Origin: Candidatus Kutchimonas denitrificans | GTDB lineage: Bacteria > Gemmatimonadota > Gemmatimonadetes > Palauibacterales > KS3-K002 | Direction: 5' to 3' | NCBI GenBank assembly: GCA_011774835.1 | Contig: JAACAK010000083.1 | Span: forward strand, 104,263-158,800 | DNA length: 54,538 nt | Shown: one piece after another, positions 11,075 to 47,602 of the stretch | Numbering within the stretch: the stretch's first letter is position 1 | How the letters are laid out: each line of letters starts with the position of its first letter | The notes under the pieces: model-generated | What the model was told of the DNA's origin: nothing | The model's input: only the letters and a program-made list of their open reading frames with translations | The model's database searches: none | Position numbers and translations under genes: made by a program

Positions 11075-12358
11075 ATGCGAGCGATACGTGGCGCGATCTG
11101 CGCGCCCGCAAACAGCCGAGAGGCGATTTACCGGGCGACCCAGCACCTGCTGGGCGCGATGGCGGAGCGGAACGGCCTGACGACCGACGAGATCGTGGCG
11201 GCGTTCTTCACCATGACGCCAGACCTGGATGCCGAGTTTCCCGCCTATGCCGCGCGAGACATGGGGTGGACGGATGTCGCCATGCTGGGCGCTCAGGAAA
11301 CCCTCGTGCCCGGCGGCCTCCCGCGCACGATTCGTGTGCTCCTGCTTGCCGTCGGTGCCGATCCGGCCCGACACGTCTATCTCGGTCAGGCGGCGCGCAT
11401 GCGCTCGGACCTGGTGGAGCCGGGCGATGCGGAGGCTTGGGATGGAGAAGCTCGGGTCGAGGCGACAGCGCGGAGCGAACGCATGGGCACGCTGCTCGTG
11501 GTCGGGCTGGGATTGATCGGCGGATCGCTGGCGGGTGCGGCCCGCCGGGCGGGCATCTTCGAGACCGTCCGCGGCCACGATCGTGATCGAGAAGCCCTGG
11601 CGATGGCTCGACGGCGTGGATTGATCGATGAGGGGAGCGACGATCTGCGCGACGCCGTCGCCGCGGCCGACATGCTGGTGCTGGCGACCCCGGTGGAAGC
11701 GATAGCGAAGACGCTCGAGGGCGTGGCCCGCGACCTGAAGCCCGCTGCGGTGGTCACCGACGTGGGCAGCACGAAGCGGGCGATCGTGGCGGCGATGGAC
11801 CGCCTGGGGCCCAGGGTCCGCGCCGTGGGCGGCCACCCGATGGCCGGAGACACGCGAACCGGCCCGGAAGCGGCACGACTCGATCTGTTTCAGGGGGCGC
11901 GCTGGGCGCTCATCCCGTTGCAAAGCGCCGACGTCGAGGCGAAGAAACGAGTGGAGCGCCTGGTGCGGGCGGTGGGCGCCGAGCCCCTGTGGACGACGGC
12001 AGAAAGCCACGACCGGGTGGTTGCCGGTACCAGCCATCTGCCGGCGGCCATGGCGGTGGCTCTGGTTCAGCAGGTCGCGGGGCTGAGCGAGCTCGGGCTC
12101 GAGCCCGCGGCCCTGGTCGGGCCTGGTTTCGTCGATGCCAGCCGCCTCGCCGCGGGCGACCCCGAGATGACGGCACAGATGCTGGCGACGAACGCGTCCG
12201 AGTTCCAGTCCTCGATCGACGGCTTGATCGAATCGCTACGGGAAATCGGGCAGCTGGCGACGACGGACCGCGGCGCGCTGGCGCGCCGGCTCGAAGAAGC
12301 CCGGACATCGCGCGCTTCGCTGGTTGGGAATTGGGGAAGTGGGAAATCGGGATTCTGA
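11075..12358 (+). CDS. AroH-type chorismate mutase fused to prephenate/arogenate dehydrogenase (TyrA)
   Basis: N-terminus MRAIRGA...TPDLDAEFPA...LPRTIRVL...HVYL (AroH); C-terminus GLGLIGGSLA, TDVGSTK, GGHPMAG, HDRVVAGTSHLP (TyrA). Confidence 0.9.
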   Translation: MRAIRGAICAPANSREAIYRATQHLLGAMAERNGLTTDEIVAAFFTMTPDLDAEFPAYAARDMGWTDVAMLGAQETLVPGGLPRTIRVLLLAVGADPARHVYLGQAARMRSDLVEPGDAEAWDGEARVEATARSERMGTLLVVGLGLIGGSLAGAARRAGIFETVRGHDRDREALAMARRRGLIDEGSDDLRDAVAAADMLVLATPVEAIAKTLEGVARDLKPAAVVTDVGSTKRAIVAAMDRLGPRVRAVGGHPMAGDTRTGPEAARLDLFQGARWALIPLQSADVEAKKRVERLVRAVGAEPLWTTAESHDRVVAGTSHLPAAMAVALVQQVAGLSELGLEPAALVGPGFVDASRLAAGDPEMTAQMLATNASEFQSSIDGLIESLREIGQLATTDRGALARRLEEARTSRASLVGNWGSGKSGF

Positions 12359-12589
12359 TCTTGGGAAGATCCAGTTCTCTCCGAATTGCTGAAGCGGAGT
12401 CGGTGATTCGGTGATTCGGGGATTCGGGGAGGTGGGAAGTGGTGTTGGCAACCCTGGTGGCCCAATACTTCGTCTGTCCCCGAATCGCCGAATCCCCGAA
12501 TCTTCTTCGACAATTCGGAGAGAACTCCGAACTTCCCGAAATCGGAGTCCCGACATCAGAATCCGAATTCAAGAACTCAAGATTCCCAC
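12322..12589. repeat. Long imperfect palindrome of GATTCGGG-type octamers; gene-less copy of the 37.5-kb element
   Basis: AGTTCTCTCCGAATTG (12373-12388) inverted at 12511-12526; arms closely match 37516-37610 and 38010-38102. Confidence 0.9.
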
Positions 12590-13411
12590 CTAGTGGGGGA
12601 GGCGCTCGACGGTTGTCGTCTCCGAGACGTCGGGCGGCGCGCTCGGCTTGACCCGCACCGATTTGGCGGGGATGCCCACGTTGACGTGGAAGGGCCTGAC
12701 GTCACGTGTGGCGACGGCGTTGGCCCCGACCATGGAATTGCGACCGACGGTCACCCCGGCCAGGACGGTGGCGTGATAGGTGATCCGGACGTCGTCCTCG
12801 AGCACCGTGCGGGCCAGCGTGACATTGCGCTGGTCGACGATCGAATGGGTGTGAGAATAGATGTTGGCGTAGTCGGAGATCGAGACGCGATCGCCCAATG
12901 AGATGCCGCCGCGATCATCGAGCAGAACATGGCGGTGGACGACCACGTCGTCGCCGACCTCCATGTTATAGCCGAACGAGAACTCGACGAAGTTGAAGCA
13001 CTTGAAGTTCCGGCCGCAGCGCCTGAAGATGTGCGGTGCCAGCATTCGCCGGAATCGGACCCCGAGATGCACGTTGTTGCCGAGGGGCGACTTGTCGAAC
13101 ATCTGCCAGAGCCACAGCAGCGGCTTGACCCGAGCGTACTCCTCCTGGTCGACCTCGATGTAATATTCGGGCTCCATCGTGATGTTGCGCGGATCGAGGT
13201 TCAGCATCCACATCCGCTGGGCTGCGGAGAGCTCGTCGAGGTCGAGCCCGTCCAGCCCGGGGAAGTAGATGTCGCGGAGAACGGAGAGGCAGAACTGCGA
13301 CCGATCCAGATCGGGCTTCGCCAGCTCCTCCTCCAACCCCTCGATCCAGGCGTCGTAGGCCTTTACGGCCTCCTCCGCCGGGTTCGCGTCTCGAAGCGGC
13401 ATAAACGGCAT
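12590..13411 (-). CDS. Hexapeptide-repeat (left-handed beta-helix) acyltransferase
   Basis: VGDDVVVHRHVLLDDRGGISLGDRVSISDYANIYSHTH...VLAGVTVGRNSMVGANAVATRDV...GIPAK; ATG at 13411. Confidence 0.88.
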   Translation of the reverse strand: MPFMPLRDANPAEEAVKAYDAWIEGLEEELAKPDLDRSQFCLSVLRDIYFPGLDGLDLDELSAAQRMWMLNLDPRNITMEPEYYIEVDQEEYARVKPLLWLWQMFDKSPLGNNVHLGVRFRRMLAPHIFRRCGRNFKCFNFVEFSFGYNMEVGDDVVVHRHVLLDDRGGISLGDRVSISDYANIYSHTHSIVDQRNVTLARTVLEDDVRITYHATVLAGVTVGRNSMVGANAVATRDVRPFHVNVGIPAKSVRVKPSAPPDVSETTTVERLPH

Positions 13412-13764
13412 GGCCCCAAGGTAGCAAACGGGAGTCATCCCCGGCAAGAAAATCCGGGGGCCGCCAGGCCGGGGGGACCGGGAGGGGCCGGGCGGGGCCG
13501 GGCGGGGCCCGGTAGGGGCCGCGTGATGCCGGGTTCGACAATCAGGGCGCCGCGGGGTAGTATTTCATCCCATGTCGGGAGGACTTTTCCCGGCGCCGGG
13601 AACAACCGCAGGGGGAACGGCGTGGCGGCGGGTCGGCGCGGGGACGGGTCGGCGCCATGCCCGGCGCGGCTCGCGCCGGGTCCGGTGGAGAGCAGGGGCG
13701 GGCCGGAGCCCGGACGGGTCGCGTGGACGACGGCGTTGGCCGGATCGCCTGAGGAGAATTGAAG

Positions 13765-35114: not shown

Positions 35115-36587
35115 ATGCTGGAAGCGCGAAGCTGCATCGTCGTGGCGGTGGCCGCGACGGCCCTGGCCTCGGGGTGCCGATCGGCGCCGGGTTACACGGA
35201 CCGGGACGTGGACATCACCGAGGCCGACATGCGGGCCCGGATCGGCTTCCTGGCCGCTGATCAGCTGGAAGGCCGGGGCACCCCGAGCACCGGCCTCGAG
35301 CTGGCCGCCAGCTACATCCGGTCGGAGTTCGCACGCATGGGGCTGCAGGCGCCGCCCGGCGGCTACGTGCAGCGCTATCGGCTGGCGATGACCGAGATGG
35401 GTGCCGACTGGTCGCTGGCATTGAGCCGCGGGAACCGACGGGCGCTGCTGGCGCTGGGGACCGATTACTGGGGGCTCCCCTGGGCGGCCGGAACGGTGGA
35501 AGGCGATCTCCGCTTCGTCGACGCAGTCGGACGTCCGGGGATGCGGGAGACGGGGGAGCCCACGATCTGGGTGGCGCGGCTGAGCGCCGCCGTGCTCCCC
35601 CGGGAGTGGCTGGCCGAAGCAGCGGATGCCGGAGCCGCGGGCCTCCTGCTCGTGCTGACGGCGGAGACCGAGGCCCTGATGAGCCACTGGCTCGAGGTAG
35701 GGGAGACGCTGTACGAGCTGGGCGATGTCGAGCCGAGCCTGCCTGCCGCGCTGGTGACCGAGAGCGCGCTGGCAGCGGCCCTCGAGCGATTGGGCCTGGA
35801 GGCGACGACGACGGCGGGAGCGCCGGCCGGATCCGGCGTCCGGGCCCGACTCGCCGCCGATTTGCGGGCCGAGACGCTGGCGGCGCCGAACGTGATGGGG
35901 ATCGTCCGGGGCAGCGATCCGGAGCTGGCCGAGGAGTTCGTGCTGCTGAGCGCTCACATGGACGGTCTGGGCGTGGGACCGCCGGTGGACGGCGATTCGA
36001 TATACAACGGGGCCGACGACAACGCGTCGGGCACATCGGCGCTGCTGGAGGTCGCCGAAGCGGTCGCCGCGCTCGAGCGCCGCCCGAAGCGCTCGATCTT
36101 CTTCCTGGCGGTGAGCGGCGAGGAACGCGGACTGCTGGGCTCGTCGTGGTTCGTGGAGCATCCGCCGATCCGTCTCGACCGGGTGATCGCCAACATCAAC
36201 ATCGACATGGTGGGTCGTAACTGGGAGGACACGATCGCGGTGATCGGCAAGCCGTATTCGACCCTGGGCGCCATCGTGGACAGCGTGGCGGCGGCGCACC
36301 CCGAACTGTCGATGACACCGGTGGGTGACCGGTGGCCGCAGGAGAACTTCTTCTTCCGATCCGATCACTTCAACTTCGCGCGCGAGGGCATCCCCGCCGT
36401 CTTCTTCTTCAACGGCGTGCACGAGGACTACCACATGCCGTCGGACGAAGCCGACAAGATCAAGAACGGCAAGGCGGCGCGGGTGTCACGGCTCATCTTC
36501 GAGGTCGCGGTCGCGCTGGCGAACGCCGAGCAGCCGCCCGGTTGGGACGACGCGGCCCGGGCGCGAATCGTCGAGGACGGCCGTTGA
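35115..36587 (+). CDS. M28 family peptidase, lipoprotein
   Basis: Lipobox ASGC; SAHMD, NGADDNASG, GEERGLLGS, NIDMVGR, RSDH, YH. Confidence 0.9.
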   Translation: MLEARSCIVVAVAATALASGCRSAPGYTDRDVDITEADMRARIGFLAADQLEGRGTPSTGLELAASYIRSEFARMGLQAPPGGYVQRYRLAMTEMGADWSLALSRGNRRALLALGTDYWGLPWAAGTVEGDLRFVDAVGRPGMRETGEPTIWVARLSAAVLPREWLAEAADAGAAGLLLVLTAETEALMSHWLEVGETLYELGDVEPSLPAALVTESALAAALERLGLEATTTAGAPAGSGVRARLAADLRAETLAAPNVMGIVRGSDPELAEEFVLLSAHMDGLGVGPPVDGDSIYNGADDNASGTSALLEVAEAVAALERRPKRSIFFLAVSGEERGLLGSSWFVEHPPIRLDRVIANINIDMVGRNWEDTIAVIGKPYSTLGAIVDSVAAAHPELSMTPVGDRWPQENFFFRSDHFNFAREGIPAVFFFNGVHEDYHMPSDEADKIKNGKAARVSRLIFEVAVALANAEQPPGWDDAARARIVEDGR

Positions 36588-37474
36588 TCCGGTTCGGGAC
36601 GGCCGGCTGGAGCTACGACGACTGGCAGGGGGTCGTATACCCGAGGTCGCGTCCCCGCGGCTTCGATCCGCTGGCGTATCTGGCACGCTACTTCAACACT
36701 GTCGAGGTCAACTCCACCTTCTACCGGCCGCCGCGACCCGAGGTCCCGGCGCGCTGGGTGAAGCGGGTGGCCGACAACGACGATTTCAAGTTCACGGCCA
36801 AGCTGTGGCAGCGCTTCACGCACCAGCGCGACGAGGCCTGGACCCGTGACGAAGCGGAGGCTGTCCGCGCCGGCCTCGACCCCCTGGCCGAACGCGATCG
36901 GCTGGGCGCGGTGTTGGTGCAGTTCCCCTGGTCCTTCAAGGCGCGTGACGACTCCTTCGAGTGGCTGGACGATGTGACCTCCGAGTTCTCCGGCTACCCG
37001 CTCGTCGTCGAGGTTCGGCACTCGTCCTGGAACACGCCCGAGTTCCACCGCTGGCTGAACGAGCGCGGGATCGGTTTCGTCAACATCGATCAGCCGCAGT
37101 TCAATCGGTCGATCGGTCCCACGGCCGAAACGAGCGGCCGGGTCGGCTACGTGCGGCTGCACGGGCGCAACTACGAGGACTGGTTTCGCGAAGACGCCGG
37201 GCGCGAGGCCCGCTACGACTATCTCTATTCCAGCGACGAGCTGGAGCTGTGGGTGGAACGGATCAAGGAACTCGGGAAAGACGGATCGGTGGAGGATGTC
37301 TACGTGGTCACCAATAACCACTACCGGGGCCAGGCGGCGGCGAACGCGATCATGCTGAGCGCGATGTTGCGTGGCGGGGCGCAGCCGGCGCCGGCGCCGC
37401 TAGTGGAGGCTTATTCCGAGGCGCTGCGGCCGTTTGTCGTGCCGGAAGAAGGGCCGCAGCGCCGCCTGCTTTAG
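36584..37474 (+). CDS. DUF72 domain protein
   Basis: TTG start overlapping the upstream TGA; FGTAGWSY, VEVNSTFY, QFPWSF, YVRLHGRN, RYDYLYS, NNH. Confidence 0.92.
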   Translation: MIRFGTAGWSYDDWQGVVYPRSRPRGFDPLAYLARYFNTVEVNSTFYRPPRPEVPARWVKRVADNDDFKFTAKLWQRFTHQRDEAWTRDEAEAVRAGLDPLAERDRLGAVLVQFPWSFKARDDSFEWLDDVTSEFSGYPLVVEVRHSSWNTPEFHRWLNERGIGFVNIDQPQFNRSIGPTAETSGRVGYVRLHGRNYEDWFREDAGREARYDYLYSSDELELWVERIKELGKDGSVEDVYVVTNNHYRGQAAANAIMLSAMLRGGAQPAPAPLVEAYSEALRPFVVPEEGPQRRLL

Positions 37475-38130
37475 GGTGGGAATGGTTGAATCTTGAATTA
37501 TGATTTCGGGATTCTGAGGTCGGGATTCTGATTTGGGGAAGTTCGAGTTCTCTCCGAATTGTGGAAGCGGATTCGGGGATTCGGGGATTCGGGGGTTCGG
37601 GGAGATAGGCAAGTGGCGGCTACTTCTTGGTGGGCTTCTGGTCGTTCTTGCGGGCGGTGGCGATGCTGACGACGAAGATGGCGGTCAGTTCGTCGGCTTC
37701 TTGGATCGTCTGGTCGAGTTTCTCTCTCGGTCCCATGCCGAGCTCCCTCAGGTACTTGAGCCAGACCAGGGTCTCGCGGAGCTCTTTCAGGCAGATCTTG
37801 AGTTTGTGGATGAAATCCCGGCGGGACTCGCTGGTGCAGGCCTCGGCGTAATTGGGCGCCGGGGCCATTCCACAGCGCATGAGCTGACTCGAGATATGGG
37901 TTCCGACCCGGCTGGAGGGGAGACCGCCGGCGATCTTCGACGCCGCCGCCCCCAGCCGCACCAGCCGATCCTCCAGATCCCACGCCCGCTGCTTGCCCAC
38001 ACTCATCCCCCAACTGCCCGAACCCCCGAATCACCGAATCCCCGAATCAGGTTCGGCAATTCGGAGAGAACTCGAACTTCCCCAAATCAGAATCCCGACC
38101 TCTGAATCAAGATTGAACGATTTCCATCAA
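37475..38130. mobile_element. Inverted-repeat-bounded cassette carrying a four-helix-bundle gene (mobility inferred, not shown)
   Basis: Perfect 46-bp IR at 37516-37561 / 38057-38102 extended inward by GATTCGGG octamers; gene-less sister at 12322-12589. Confidence 0.6.
37620..38006 (-). CDS. Four helix bundle protein (23S rRNA IVP / TIGR02436-type, Avd-like fold)
   Basis: DLEDRL...SQLMRCG..PAPNYAEA..SESRRDFIHKLKICLKELRETLVWL...EADELTAIF. Confidence 0.92.
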   Translation of the reverse strand: MSVGKQRAWDLEDRLVRLGAAASKIAGGLPSSRVGTHISSQLMRCGMAPAPNYAEACTSESRRDFIHKLKICLKELRETLVWLKYLRELGMGPREKLDQTIQEADELTAIFVVSIATARKNDQKPTKK

Positions 38131-38142
38131 CAAACCCTCAAC

Positions 38143-38176
38143 AAAGAAAAGGGGCCCGACGAACTCGCCGGGCCCC
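38143..38176 (-). terminator. Intrinsic terminator of the upstream outer-membrane protein gene
   Basis: Minus strand GGGGCCCG-loop-CGGGCCCC followed by TTTTCTTT. Confidence 0.8.
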
Positions 38177-38200: not shown

Positions 38201-39514
38201 TCAGTAGCCTGTCCCCGGCCAGACGCTCAGCGACAGGGCCAGCGCGACCCCGTCGCCGGCTCCGATTCCCCAGCGGCCCGCCGCGAAGTCGAGGTGCACC
38301 GGGCCGGCGTAGAGACCGAAGCCGCCGGTGACCGCCAGGCTGTTGAAGTCGGTGGCCAGGCCGGCACGCAACGGCACGACGGAGAGCAGGCGCAGCTCGG
38401 CACCGGCCGACAGCTGCCGCTCCCAACGCGCGTTCAGCGAGCCGCCCAGCAGCTCCAGATAGTCGGCCGACAGGCTGAGCATCGAGCCCATTCGCCAGGC
38501 CGCGCCGAGCCGCAGCTTCTTCGGGACGTCGGCGCCCTGCAGGTACTCGGACACGCGTTCCTGGTCGGCCAGTGTCAGCTCGCTGAACGCCAGTGTCGTG
38601 TCGGTGGACGTGGCACTGTCGAAGTCGGCGTGCGCGGTGTAGCGCTTGAGCTCGAACGCCTCTTCGTCCCACTGTATGTTGGAGAAGGCGTCGATGACCG
38701 AGATGCCCGCCACCAGCGAGCCCCACTCCATCGCCGCGCCCAGGTCGGCGGCCCACACGCTCCCGGCATTGAACTCGGTCGAGTTCAGCACCTCGGCGTC
38801 CACATCCAGGACGAGCGGATCATAGGTCAGTGCCGTGCCCTGATCCGCCGCTCGGTACAATCCGTGGGCCACGCCGTACTTCACCGTGGCCCCGATCGAG
38901 AACTTCATGTCCAGATAATCGAGGGCCGGAATCGTGAACGGCTGGGCGTATGACACGTAGACACTGCTCAGCCCCCAGCCGTCGCCGTGGGAACCGTCCA
39001 GAGTGAAGTCGCGGCCCGTGCCGTCCTCGCCCATATTCCCGAACAGGATCAGCTCCGCCGCGTCCGGTGAGACCGCCAGCGCCGTCGATCCGGTGGCACC
39101 GACGCCGAAGGCGAACCGCCAGATGCTGAACGCCATGCCCGTCGCGCCCAGGTCGGCGCTCAGCTCGAGCATCCCGTCACCGTCCACGCCACGGATCTCC
39201 GCCAGCAGCTCGGACTTGGTCGCGTCATCCAGATACTCTCCGTAGAGATCCTCGATCTGACCGTAGCTCAGCGAGTTGTTGTCCAGGTAGGCGTTGGCGC
39301 CCGCCAGCCCGATCGACCAGCCGGGCCGGTCGGACAGCCCGAGGTTGGCCGGATTCCAGAACGGCGATTCGTAGCCGCGGGCGCGGCCGACGTAGGAGTC
39401 GGCGAGGCCGGCGCTGCGGGCGCTCGGTGCCGCCATCTGCGCCCCCGCCACGCCCGGCGAGCAGGCGAGGAGCGCGAGAACGATGGTCGTGACCTTGAAG
39501 TCCGTGTTGCTCAT
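38201..39514 (-). CDS. Exported probable outer-membrane beta-barrel (FadL/TraF/DUF5723-like)
   Basis: Signal peptide; SARSAGLA...FWNPANLG; amphipathic beta strands (LPLRAG-like, GGFGLY) in the C-terminal half. Confidence 0.65.
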   Translation of the reverse strand: MSNTDFKVTTIVLALLACSPGVAGAQMAAPSARSAGLADSYVGRARGYESPFWNPANLGLSDRPGWSIGLAGANAYLDNNSLSYGQIEDLYGEYLDDATKSELLAEIRGVDGDGMLELSADLGATGMAFSIWRFAFGVGATGSTALAVSPDAAELILFGNMGEDGTGRDFTLDGSHGDGWGLSSVYVSYAQPFTIPALDYLDMKFSIGATVKYGVAHGLYRAADQGTALTYDPLVLDVDAEVLNSTEFNAGSVWAADLGAAMEWGSLVAGISVIDAFSNIQWDEEAFELKRYTAHADFDSATSTDTTLAFSELTLADQERVSEYLQGADVPKKLRLGAAWRMGSMLSLSADYLELLGGSLNARWERQLSAGAELRLLSVVPLRAGLATDFNSLAVTGGFGLYAGPVHLDFAAGRWGIGAGDGVALALSLSVWPGTGY

Positions 39515-47445: not shown

Positions 47446-47602
47446 GAATGGACGATGTTCAACGTTCAATGTGTAAGTCTCGAGTCGAACGGCATCAATG
47501 TGCACGTTCAATTTCCAACTCTCAATGACTTGGAAATTGACAATTGAGTCTGAACATTGATGCCGTTCGACTTGATAATTGAACGTTGAACATCGTCCAT
47601 TC
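47446..47602. repeat. 157-bp AT-rich nested palindrome
   Basis: 25-bp perfect IR 47446-47470/47578-47602, 19-bp IR 47483-47501/47554-47572, 11-bp IR 47508-47518/47530-47540. Confidence 0.92.

Follow-up and report, generated by a model that had tools for sequence, protein, structure and literature searches.

Two long inverted repeats lie some 25 kb apart in the genome of an uncultured bacterium, one of them enclosing a small gene and the other next to nothing; are they the filled and the empty form of one mobile element, and if so, from which form did the other arise? The window analysed here is a stretch of 54,538 nucleotides (nt) of Candidatus Kutchimonas denitrificans (contig JAACAK010000083.1, positions 104,263 to 158,800), whose assembly, here called G000, is an uncultured Gemmatimonadota metagenome-assembled genome (MAG) of 3.76 Mb in 149 contigs, 86.6% complete. 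Plain coordinates refer to the window, and those preceded by a C number to contigs of that assembly. A preliminary description of the window had noticed the likeness between a gene-less hairpin and a four-helix-bundle gene cassette, and had seen in them either an autonomous/non-autonomous family or an exchange of cargo within the loop. The evidence assembled below favours, at a probability of roughly 0.58, a reading of the hairpin at 12325–12588 as a derivative copy, non-coding and in decay, of a cassette known from the gene-bearing intervening sequences (IVSs) of 23S ribosomal RNA (rRNA), in which long inverted arms, made up in part of 7–8-nt tandem units, carry a PF05635 four-helix-bundle gene in the loop; the gene-less form would have multiplied from the gene-bearing lineage.

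Two hairpins built from the same arms

The gene-less element has the following parts, none with an assigned strand.

12325..12588: gene-less hairpin element, 264 nt, with ends TGGGAAT...ATTCCCA; drawn from the fold, the inverted repeats and an alignment of 22 copies
12325..12432: left (G-rich) arm, from the inverted repeats and the arm alignment; an outer segment with GGGATTCTGA, a 16-mer core at 12373-12388, four GATTCGGN octamers at 12397-12430 and an inner GGTGGGAAGTG
12433..12470: apex or loop, about 38 nt; the same place holds the gene in the sister copy
12471..12588: right (C-rich) arm; it contains CCCCGAATC units, and its core, in reverse complement, is at 12511-12526

The two ends were read from the 22-copy alignment, and the coordinates first given for the element lie within 3 nt of them. 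The region 12315–12600 folds as one long hairpin, at −154.8 kcal/mol on the plus strand against −103.9 ± 5.3 for shuffled versions (z −9.7; none of 200 shuffles folded equally well) and at −129 kcal/mol on the minus strand (z −8.4). The innermost repeat arms, 12373–12422 and 12477–12526, are 86% complementary, and the conserved stem extends inward past them to the apex at 12433–12470, which fits the spacing of about 35 nt previously put between the arms. The central ~25 nt of this apex is poorly conserved across the 22 aligned copies. Complementarity in the fold spans the whole length of the element, beyond its ends alone, and no T-run follows the stem. The open reading frames (ORFs) that cross the element are antisense frames or extensions of flanking genes. 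Rfam returned nothing above threshold for either the hairpin or the cassette; the hairpin alone drew sub-threshold matches, to eukaryotic miRNA-precursor (long-hairpin) models, with 54.9 bits against a gathering score of 230.

The sister copy has the same architecture with a gene at its tip.

37477..38126, no strand: gene-bearing sister cassette, 650 nt, with ends TGGGAAT...ATTTCCA
37510-37609 / 38009-38108: its arms, 100 nt each, 91% complementary, with 399 nt enclosed
37620..38006, minus strand: four-helix-bundle protein gene, 387 nt, 128 aa, in the cassette loop

In both the window element and the cassette, terminal inverted repeats make up the stem. The gene of the filled copy substitutes exactly for the apex, and stem sequence comes within a few bases of both its start and its stop codon. 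The 128-residue product matches PF05635 (3.7e-13, 50 bits against a cut-off of 33.8) and TIGR02436 (1.8e-20, 73.2 bits against a cut-off of 24), and its relatives in the PDB by family profile are 2RLD (8.9e-21) and 2GSC (1.7e-10), with five chains in each entry.

The claim that all four arms share a 16-base-pair (bp) core and that the two left arms align was fully borne out. The 16-mer AGTTCTCTCCGAATTG has exactly four matches in the window, at 12373, 12511(−), 37546 and 38057(−), one in each arm, where shuffled windows would be expected to hold 0.03 and none of 100 shuffles reached four; the arms can be aligned over about 110 nt with a mean column identity of 74%. Throughout the family, an arm read from outside inward begins with a TGGGAAT terminus and continues through a segment with CGGGATTCTGA, the 16-mer core and two to four GATTCGGG octamers to an innermost GGTGGGAAGTG, which pairs with CACTTCGTCTTT before the apex.

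One filled copy among dozens of empty ones

The preliminary description called for a genome-wide count of the core with its loop content, and the result is lopsided. Allowing up to two mismatches, the core has 58 matches genome-wide and a reversed-pattern control has none. Pairing of plus and minus matches yields 20 hairpins, 19 of them with a core-to-core inner distance of 107–133 nt; the only arm pair beyond that range, at 495 nt, is the gene-bearing copy. A BLAST search with the element gave 103 high-scoring segment pairs at 50 places in the genome, which fall into five classes.

Gene-bearing copy: 1 place
Full gene-less hairpins, 212-268 nt: 22 places
Shorter or degenerate hairpins: 5 places
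Solo arms: 16 places, one at a contig end
Fragments of 36-57 nt: 6 places

Copies measure 210–270 nt with arms of about 100 nt, and the 21 other full copies are 71–81% identical to that of the window. What had been seen as a filled/empty pair thus belongs to one dispersed family of 50 places, far more than two isolated copies, and the family is site-polymorphic among congeners. The 86.6%-complete assembly holds no transposase-bearing member; the sole member with a long loop encodes the PF05635 protein.

Exchange of cargo within the loop, the other possibility raised at the outset, found no counterpart. A genome-wide scan for strong inverted repeats produced six with loops longer than 150 nt, and inspection showed three that enclose a PF05635 gene, two that are pairs of separate hairpins and one with a 240-nt non-coding loop. 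The last (C112:21482-21810) was considered as a decayed four-helix-bundle gene and shows no such similarity, the best E value being 0.02 over 19 residues. C128:2600-4213, which looked like a hairpin with a GGDEF cargo, is actually two separate complete hairpins on either side of the gene.

Some members depart from the standard arm pairing. Two full copies, C117:1726-1973 and C123:46565-46786, carry the standard 16-mer core on the left and a variant core on the right, the variant being the core on both arms of C10:35742. The element at C22:4621-4800 is a chimera in which the family's left arm is followed by the C-rich arm of a TAGTGGG family. The idea that solo arms are partners split by large inserts, such as C22:4621 and C22:45707 at a distance of 41 kb, was rejected: at an identity of 0.87 these two resemble each other no more closely than they resemble other copies.

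Placement at the ends of genes

Both loci lie between convergent protein-coding genes rather than in rRNA, and the neighbours are these.

11075..12358, plus strand: chorismate mutase / prephenate dehydrogenase gene (Pfam CM_1, PDH_N, PDH_C)
12590..13447, minus strand: hexapeptide-repeat transferase gene, convergent with the prephenate dehydrogenase gene
36332..37474, plus strand: DUF72 gene, with its TAG stop directly before the GGTGGGAAT terminus of the cassette
38201..39514, minus strand: DUF5723/TraF_2-like gene, convergent with the DUF72 gene

The window element is closely fitted to its neighbours. The final ~10 codons and the TGA stop of the prephenate dehydrogenase gene lie within its left arm, and the stop codon of the hexapeptide transferase gene is one base past the ATTCCCA terminus, which ends at 12588. 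Around 23 copies, crude ORF calls (G+C content at third codon positions of at least 0.8) placed a called gene on both sides of 13, and these junctions comprise 8 convergent, 5 tandem and 0 divergent arrangements; the genome-wide convergent baseline with the same caller is 19.6% (binomial p = 0.001). Gaps between copy and stop codon are mostly 0–40 nt. Copies land or survive almost exclusively just after stop codons, chiefly between convergent genes.

A small GC-rich hairpin at 38151–38176, with 12-nt arms that are 92% complementary and a 2-nt gap, stands between the cassette and the DUF5723-like gene. At the syntenic site of the congener G001 a comparable hairpin is present and the cassette is not.

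Presence and absence among congeners

At three gene-less sites with conserved synteny, the element is missing in four of four congener comparisons. (Three further probes, C22:36033, C110:171710 and C102:8429, were excluded because their flanks are not adjacent in the congeners.) At the window site, in the congener G002, the orthologous stop codons are 11 nt apart and the element is absent; the prephenate dehydrogenase ortholog there ends in GGAT*, while the window gene diverges from it at the left end of the element and continues into the arm. The stop of the hexapeptide transferase gene is unchanged in position between the two genomes. The empty site of G002 (C185, about 1475–1495 of L049) reads TGA-TTGCCGCCGAA-TCA, a small palindrome with CCGAATC, the family's C-rich unit; this mini-palindrome may be left over as a remnant, may mark a preferred target or may have arisen by chance.

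The other two sites are occupied differently. The element at C110:79654 is absent from both G001 and G002, each of which has there a shorter hairpin of a different unit family, and that at C131:49722 is absent from G001, where a (GGTAGAC)n-type hairpin takes its place. Across the three genomes, these two junctions hold hairpins of unrelated 7–8-nt unit families, which suggests repeated replacement at fixed sites.

The gene-bearing cassette is likewise missing from its syntenic site in G001. Orthologs of its protein, 64% and 62% identical, are encoded in the congeners at other loci (after groEL in G001), within cassettes that have their own arms, with TGGGAAT termini in common and similar octamers. 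The window hairpin family is detectable in 8 of 41 related genomes, representing 3 of 16 genera; G002 has a diverged full-length form, and another genus has simple (GATTCGGGG)n hairpins.

PF05635 genes and their hairpin arms in other genomes

The association between gene and arms extends well beyond this family. G000 has six PF05635 genes, one of them with an in-frame TGA, each with arms of a different unit family, and five of the six pass a test for bracketing by inverted repeats. Arm queries taken from five of the six cassettes match 4–15 places each, the cassette itself counted, and the examples folded among those matches are gene-less hairpins. The gene with the TGA, at C1:21600-21990, is the best-scoring PF05635 gene of the genome and sits amid unit repeats of GTGCGTTAGT type; a pseudogene and a case of read-through are the two alternatives.

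Relatives in other genomes were examined at 80 loci from more than 10 phyla, at about 50% identity, 70 of which have 250 nt on both sides. Hairpins bracket 66 of these 70, whose scores exceed the 95th percentile of the controls, which were of three kinds, with a median bracket score of 45.5 against 16.5–18 for the controls. This subfamily of PF05635 genes has a near-universal association with hairpin arms. In the closed 4.8-Mb chromosome of a Gemmatimonadota relative, the arm of the resident cassette has 35 matches, several of them as paired hairpins, and the pattern of one filled and many empty copies is repeated there. Among the 41 related genomes, which are kin rather than independent samples, PF05635 genes occur in 8 of 8 with the window hairpin family and in 10 of 33 without it; this co-occurrence is consistent with dependence, short of demonstrating it.

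Erosion of the arms

Three tests for compensatory arm substitutions, a possibility that the preliminary description had raised, found none. By identity, an arm is as close to strangers as to its own partner: the median is 0.81 with the partner and 0.82 with non-partners, and the partner is the best match for 2 of 46 arms. In a partner-swap test, in which all 46 arms were aligned jointly and pairing was scored per copy, pairing within a copy is 0.781 (wobble included) against 0.786 ± 0.006 after partners were exchanged between copies, and 1613 of 2000 swaps paired at least as well as the real pairs. A shuffle over 48 outer pairs from RNAalifold gave 0.946 against 0.939, with 8 double-change pairs against 4.3, a trivial excess. 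Octamer number, moreover, is often unequal between the two arms of one copy in the 22-copy alignment. Each hairpin thus descends from a palindromic family consensus and is itself eroding, without compensatory repair.

The arm pair of the cassette has the top score among 23 copies. Ordered by mean similarity to all other arms, its two arms come 1st and 6th of 46, although its left arm is the longest of all and is somewhat favoured by local scoring. An asymmetry of wobble pairs between strands was looked for and is weak: in 15 of 22 copies the strand that matches the orientation of the window copy has a slight folding advantage (p = 0.04). Because the G-rich arm is 5′ on either strand of a palindrome, such an "orientation" reflects only the asymmetry of the loop and of the imperfections.

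Origin of the gene-less form

How might one filled cassette and its many empty relatives have come about? In the scheme that we favour, the gene-bearing form would be the source lineage, from which the gene-less form would have multiplied until some 22 full copies and some 27 partial ones were present, one member (37477–38126) retaining the gene. Gene-less copies would spread in trans by whatever mobilises the cassette, for which the cassette's own protein is the sole element-encoded candidate. In transcripts that run in from the neighbouring genes, the element would form a stem of ~100 bp, on which, to judge from rRNA IVSs, RNase III could plausibly act. We infer, as the preliminary description did, an autonomous/non-autonomous relation between the two forms.

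Several observations weigh against this scheme. Movement is not seen directly. No mobilising enzyme was found, whether RAYT, reverse transcriptase or a transposase-bearing member, and any part of the four-helix-bundle protein in transactions of DNA or RNA, or in mobilisation, is conjectural. The MAG is 86.6% complete in 149 contigs, and repeats and insertion sequence (IS) elements often go unassembled. There are no near-identical, recent copies, the top identity between arms of different copies being 0.94; and the arms are ~80% alike while the centre of the apex is barely alignable, a contrast that plain neutral decay does not predict. Neither a target-site duplication nor a defined target is visible in the 22-copy alignment with its 40-nt flanks or in the three filled/empty comparisons, the species compared being too diverged to rule out a duplication of 2–3 nt. 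Between species whose DNA is ~25% diverged, a difference in presence may be due to deletion just as to insertion. The congeners have hairpins of other unit families at two of the three junctions, and the junction itself may drive hairpin formation or capture. Lastly, the PF05635 gene on C103 fails the bracket test (score 21 against a threshold of 23.55).

Among the alternatives, the one that fares best reverses the order of events: the gene-less hairpin would be primary, the four-helix-bundle gene a separate small cassette homing to the tips of long hairpins, and the filled copy an invaded hairpin. The exact fit of the gene to the place of the apex, with the stem continuing to a few bases from its start and stop codons, is what such homing would produce. 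The long form also looks nested, because (GATTCGGGG)n hairpins without outer arms stand alone in another genus, and the chimeric copies with arms of different subfamilies or families point the same way. The IVSs of rRNA, moreover, generally sit at the tips of 23S helices. That of Coxiella lies in helix 45 of 23S rRNA (PMC4990558). We nevertheless consider this order unlikely. The congener orthologs at other loci keep related arms, with the same TGGGAAT termini and similar octamers, which indicates that gene and arms move as one unit; bracketing extends over many phyla, to 66 of 70 relatives, and the arms are particular to each of them; and the arms of the filled copy are the best preserved and most consensus-like, which would be unexpected of an old hairpin that had been invaded.

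Could the copies be ordinary miniature inverted-repeat transposable elements (MITEs), that is, deletion derivatives of an IS whose transposase-bearing copy is unassembled, with the four-helix-bundle gene a mere passenger? The label "MITE-like" had been applied from the start, and part of it stands: the copies are short, non-coding and multi-copy, with inverted termini, and are site-polymorphic. The MAG is incomplete, too, and two rve-type transposase fragments occur on contigs of ~1.1–1.3 kb. These fragments, however, lack the family motifs. In its strict sense the label is unsupported, for no target-site duplication was seen at the divergence of the species compared, complementarity runs the full length of a palindrome rather than being confined to its ends, and the only arm pair of 20 with an inner distance above 133 nt holds the gene for the 128-residue four-helix-bundle protein and no transposase. 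Nor does the gene behave as a passenger, since the other PF05635 genes of this genome are each enclosed by arms of a separate family and hairpins bracket 66 of 70 relatives elsewhere. The closed relative has the same filled/empty pattern, though no search for a transposase with matching ends was made there. An origin of this kind is quite unlikely.

A further possibility is that the hairpin is a structure selected by the host, kept as a bidirectional terminator, a stabiliser of mRNA 3′ ends or an RNase III site for convergent genes, its likeness to the cassette being co-opted shared ancestry. The strong bias to convergent junctions and 3′ ends invites this explanation, as do the other-family hairpins at the same junctions in congeners (two of three sites), the better conservation of arms than of apex and the slight folding advantage of the window-orientation strand (15 of 22 copies, p = 0.04). 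The bias is, however, equally explained if insertions elsewhere are harmful. A maintained structure sits poorly with the lack of compensatory change, the unequal octamer numbers between arms and the sixteen solo arms; the stem has no T-run behind it, and the window junction of G002 does with 11 nt and no hairpin. We regard selection by the host as distinctly improbable.

The searches for mobilising enzymes bear on the last alternative. PF01797 (Y1/RAYT transposase; RAYT, REP-associated tyrosine transposase) has no match in G000 and none in five further genomes, including the 97%-complete congener G001 and the closed chromosome with its own hairpin family, whereas the same profile was found in 6 of 14 reference genomes used as a positive control; PF00078 (reverse transcriptase) has no match in G000. 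Repetitive extragenic palindromes (REPs) are about 20–40 nt long and the composite REPINs about 100 nt. That the family is a REP or REPIN family moved by a RAYT encoded elsewhere, a case against which the preliminary description had itself set its reading, is barely credible, for although many extragenic palindromic copies do occur at gene ends, PF01797 is absent from G000, from the congener and from the closed relative, and elements of 210–270 nt are well above REP and REPIN sizes.

Derivation of the gene-less copies from a gene-bearing cassette can be extended into a general, and in our judgement doubtful, proposal. PF05635 proteins might act in trans to mobilise a whole class of hairpin elements that lack a transposase, recognising the 7–8-nt unit arrays of their own arms as DNA or RNA and promoting the copying or insertion of hairpins with those arms at gene ends. 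Gene-less copies would then be non-autonomous riders, and rRNA IVSs would be the same element landed in rRNA.

Relation to known elements

The nearest known counterparts are the ORF-bearing IVSs of 23S rRNA. These occur in helix 45 of Coxiella burnetii and also in Leptospira, Xanthomonas and Brucella; the Coxiella IVS has a stem of terminal inverted repeats, an S23p ORF in the loop and tandem heptamers (GACAGAT) beside the ORF, and is excised by RNase III (PMC4990558). The same article traces IVSs to papers of 1990–1995 and relates, citing Ralph and McClelland 1993, that their mobility, with the ORF involved, has long been suspected (PMC4990558). The family described here likewise has an inverted-repeat stem, a PF05635/S23p ORF in the loop (of the sister copy only) and tandem repeats by the ORF, octamers GATTCGGG where Coxiella has heptamers. 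ORF-less IVSs exist as well, and the empty loop of the window element recalls them. Unlike 23S rRNA IVSs, the present elements lie between protein-coding genes, have a stem of ~100 bp rather than 28 bp, and have been amplified in their gene-less form to dozens of dispersed copies. Large-subunit (23S) rRNA was not detected in the assemblies G000, G001, G002 and G015, and a look for sequencing runs that contain this DNA turned up none. A full-text literature search, which did not cover subscription journals, found no published PF05635 cassettes or gene-less derivatives outside rRNA.

Some MITEs have no known transposase, the Correia elements of Neisseria being an example. Correia elements too are short, non-coding and multi-copy, with inverted ends. 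They adjoin the ends of genes or extend into them, differ among strains in their presence and fold into hairpins in transcripts. The present family differs from them in being palindromic over its whole length, in showing no target-site duplication and in having a gene-bearing relative whose only ORF is that of the four-helix-bundle protein. With REP/REPIN–RAYT systems it has in common extragenic palindromes concentrated at gene 3′ ends, and it differs in the want of any RAYT in six genomes and in elements that are several times longer, with modular arms. Avd, the accessory protein of diversity-generating retroelements (DGRs), has a four-helix-bundle fold in common with PF05635 proteins (PMC10053308). 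No reverse transcriptase was found in G000, unlike the case of a DGR, and there are no template or variable repeats, so Avd is a relative at the protein level only. The element resembles an ORF-bearing rRNA IVS in kind but not in location, and a MITE without a transposase-bearing parent; it is neither a REP/RAYT system nor a DGR.

The S23p/PF05635 ORF and the rRNA IVSs have been known for decades. One filled cassette with dozens of gene-less copies, polymorphic in congeners, makes the questions of their origin, their mobility and the function of the protein testable, as the arms, the candidate protein and the empty sites are all defined here. It also accounts for a class of long "unit-repeat" hairpins at the convergent gene junctions of these Gemmatimonadota. 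Such hairpins can change gene ends, as the prephenate dehydrogenase gene illustrates by taking its last ~10 codons and stop from the element, and ORFs called across them are artefacts, a point of caution for annotation.

Hairpins of other families

Long hairpins of other unit families also occur in this genome. A third long hairpin of the window, at 47446–47602 (C123:151708-151864), belongs to an AT-rich unit family of GAACGTTGAACATC / TTGGAAATTGA type; it has arms of ~60–68 nt and a 28-nt loop, and scored 75 in the inverted-repeat scan. At C128:2600-4213, a gene for a 409-residue GGDEF (diguanylate cyclase-like) protein lies between complete hairpins of an AT-rich TTGAAAATTGGATGTGAACATTG family.

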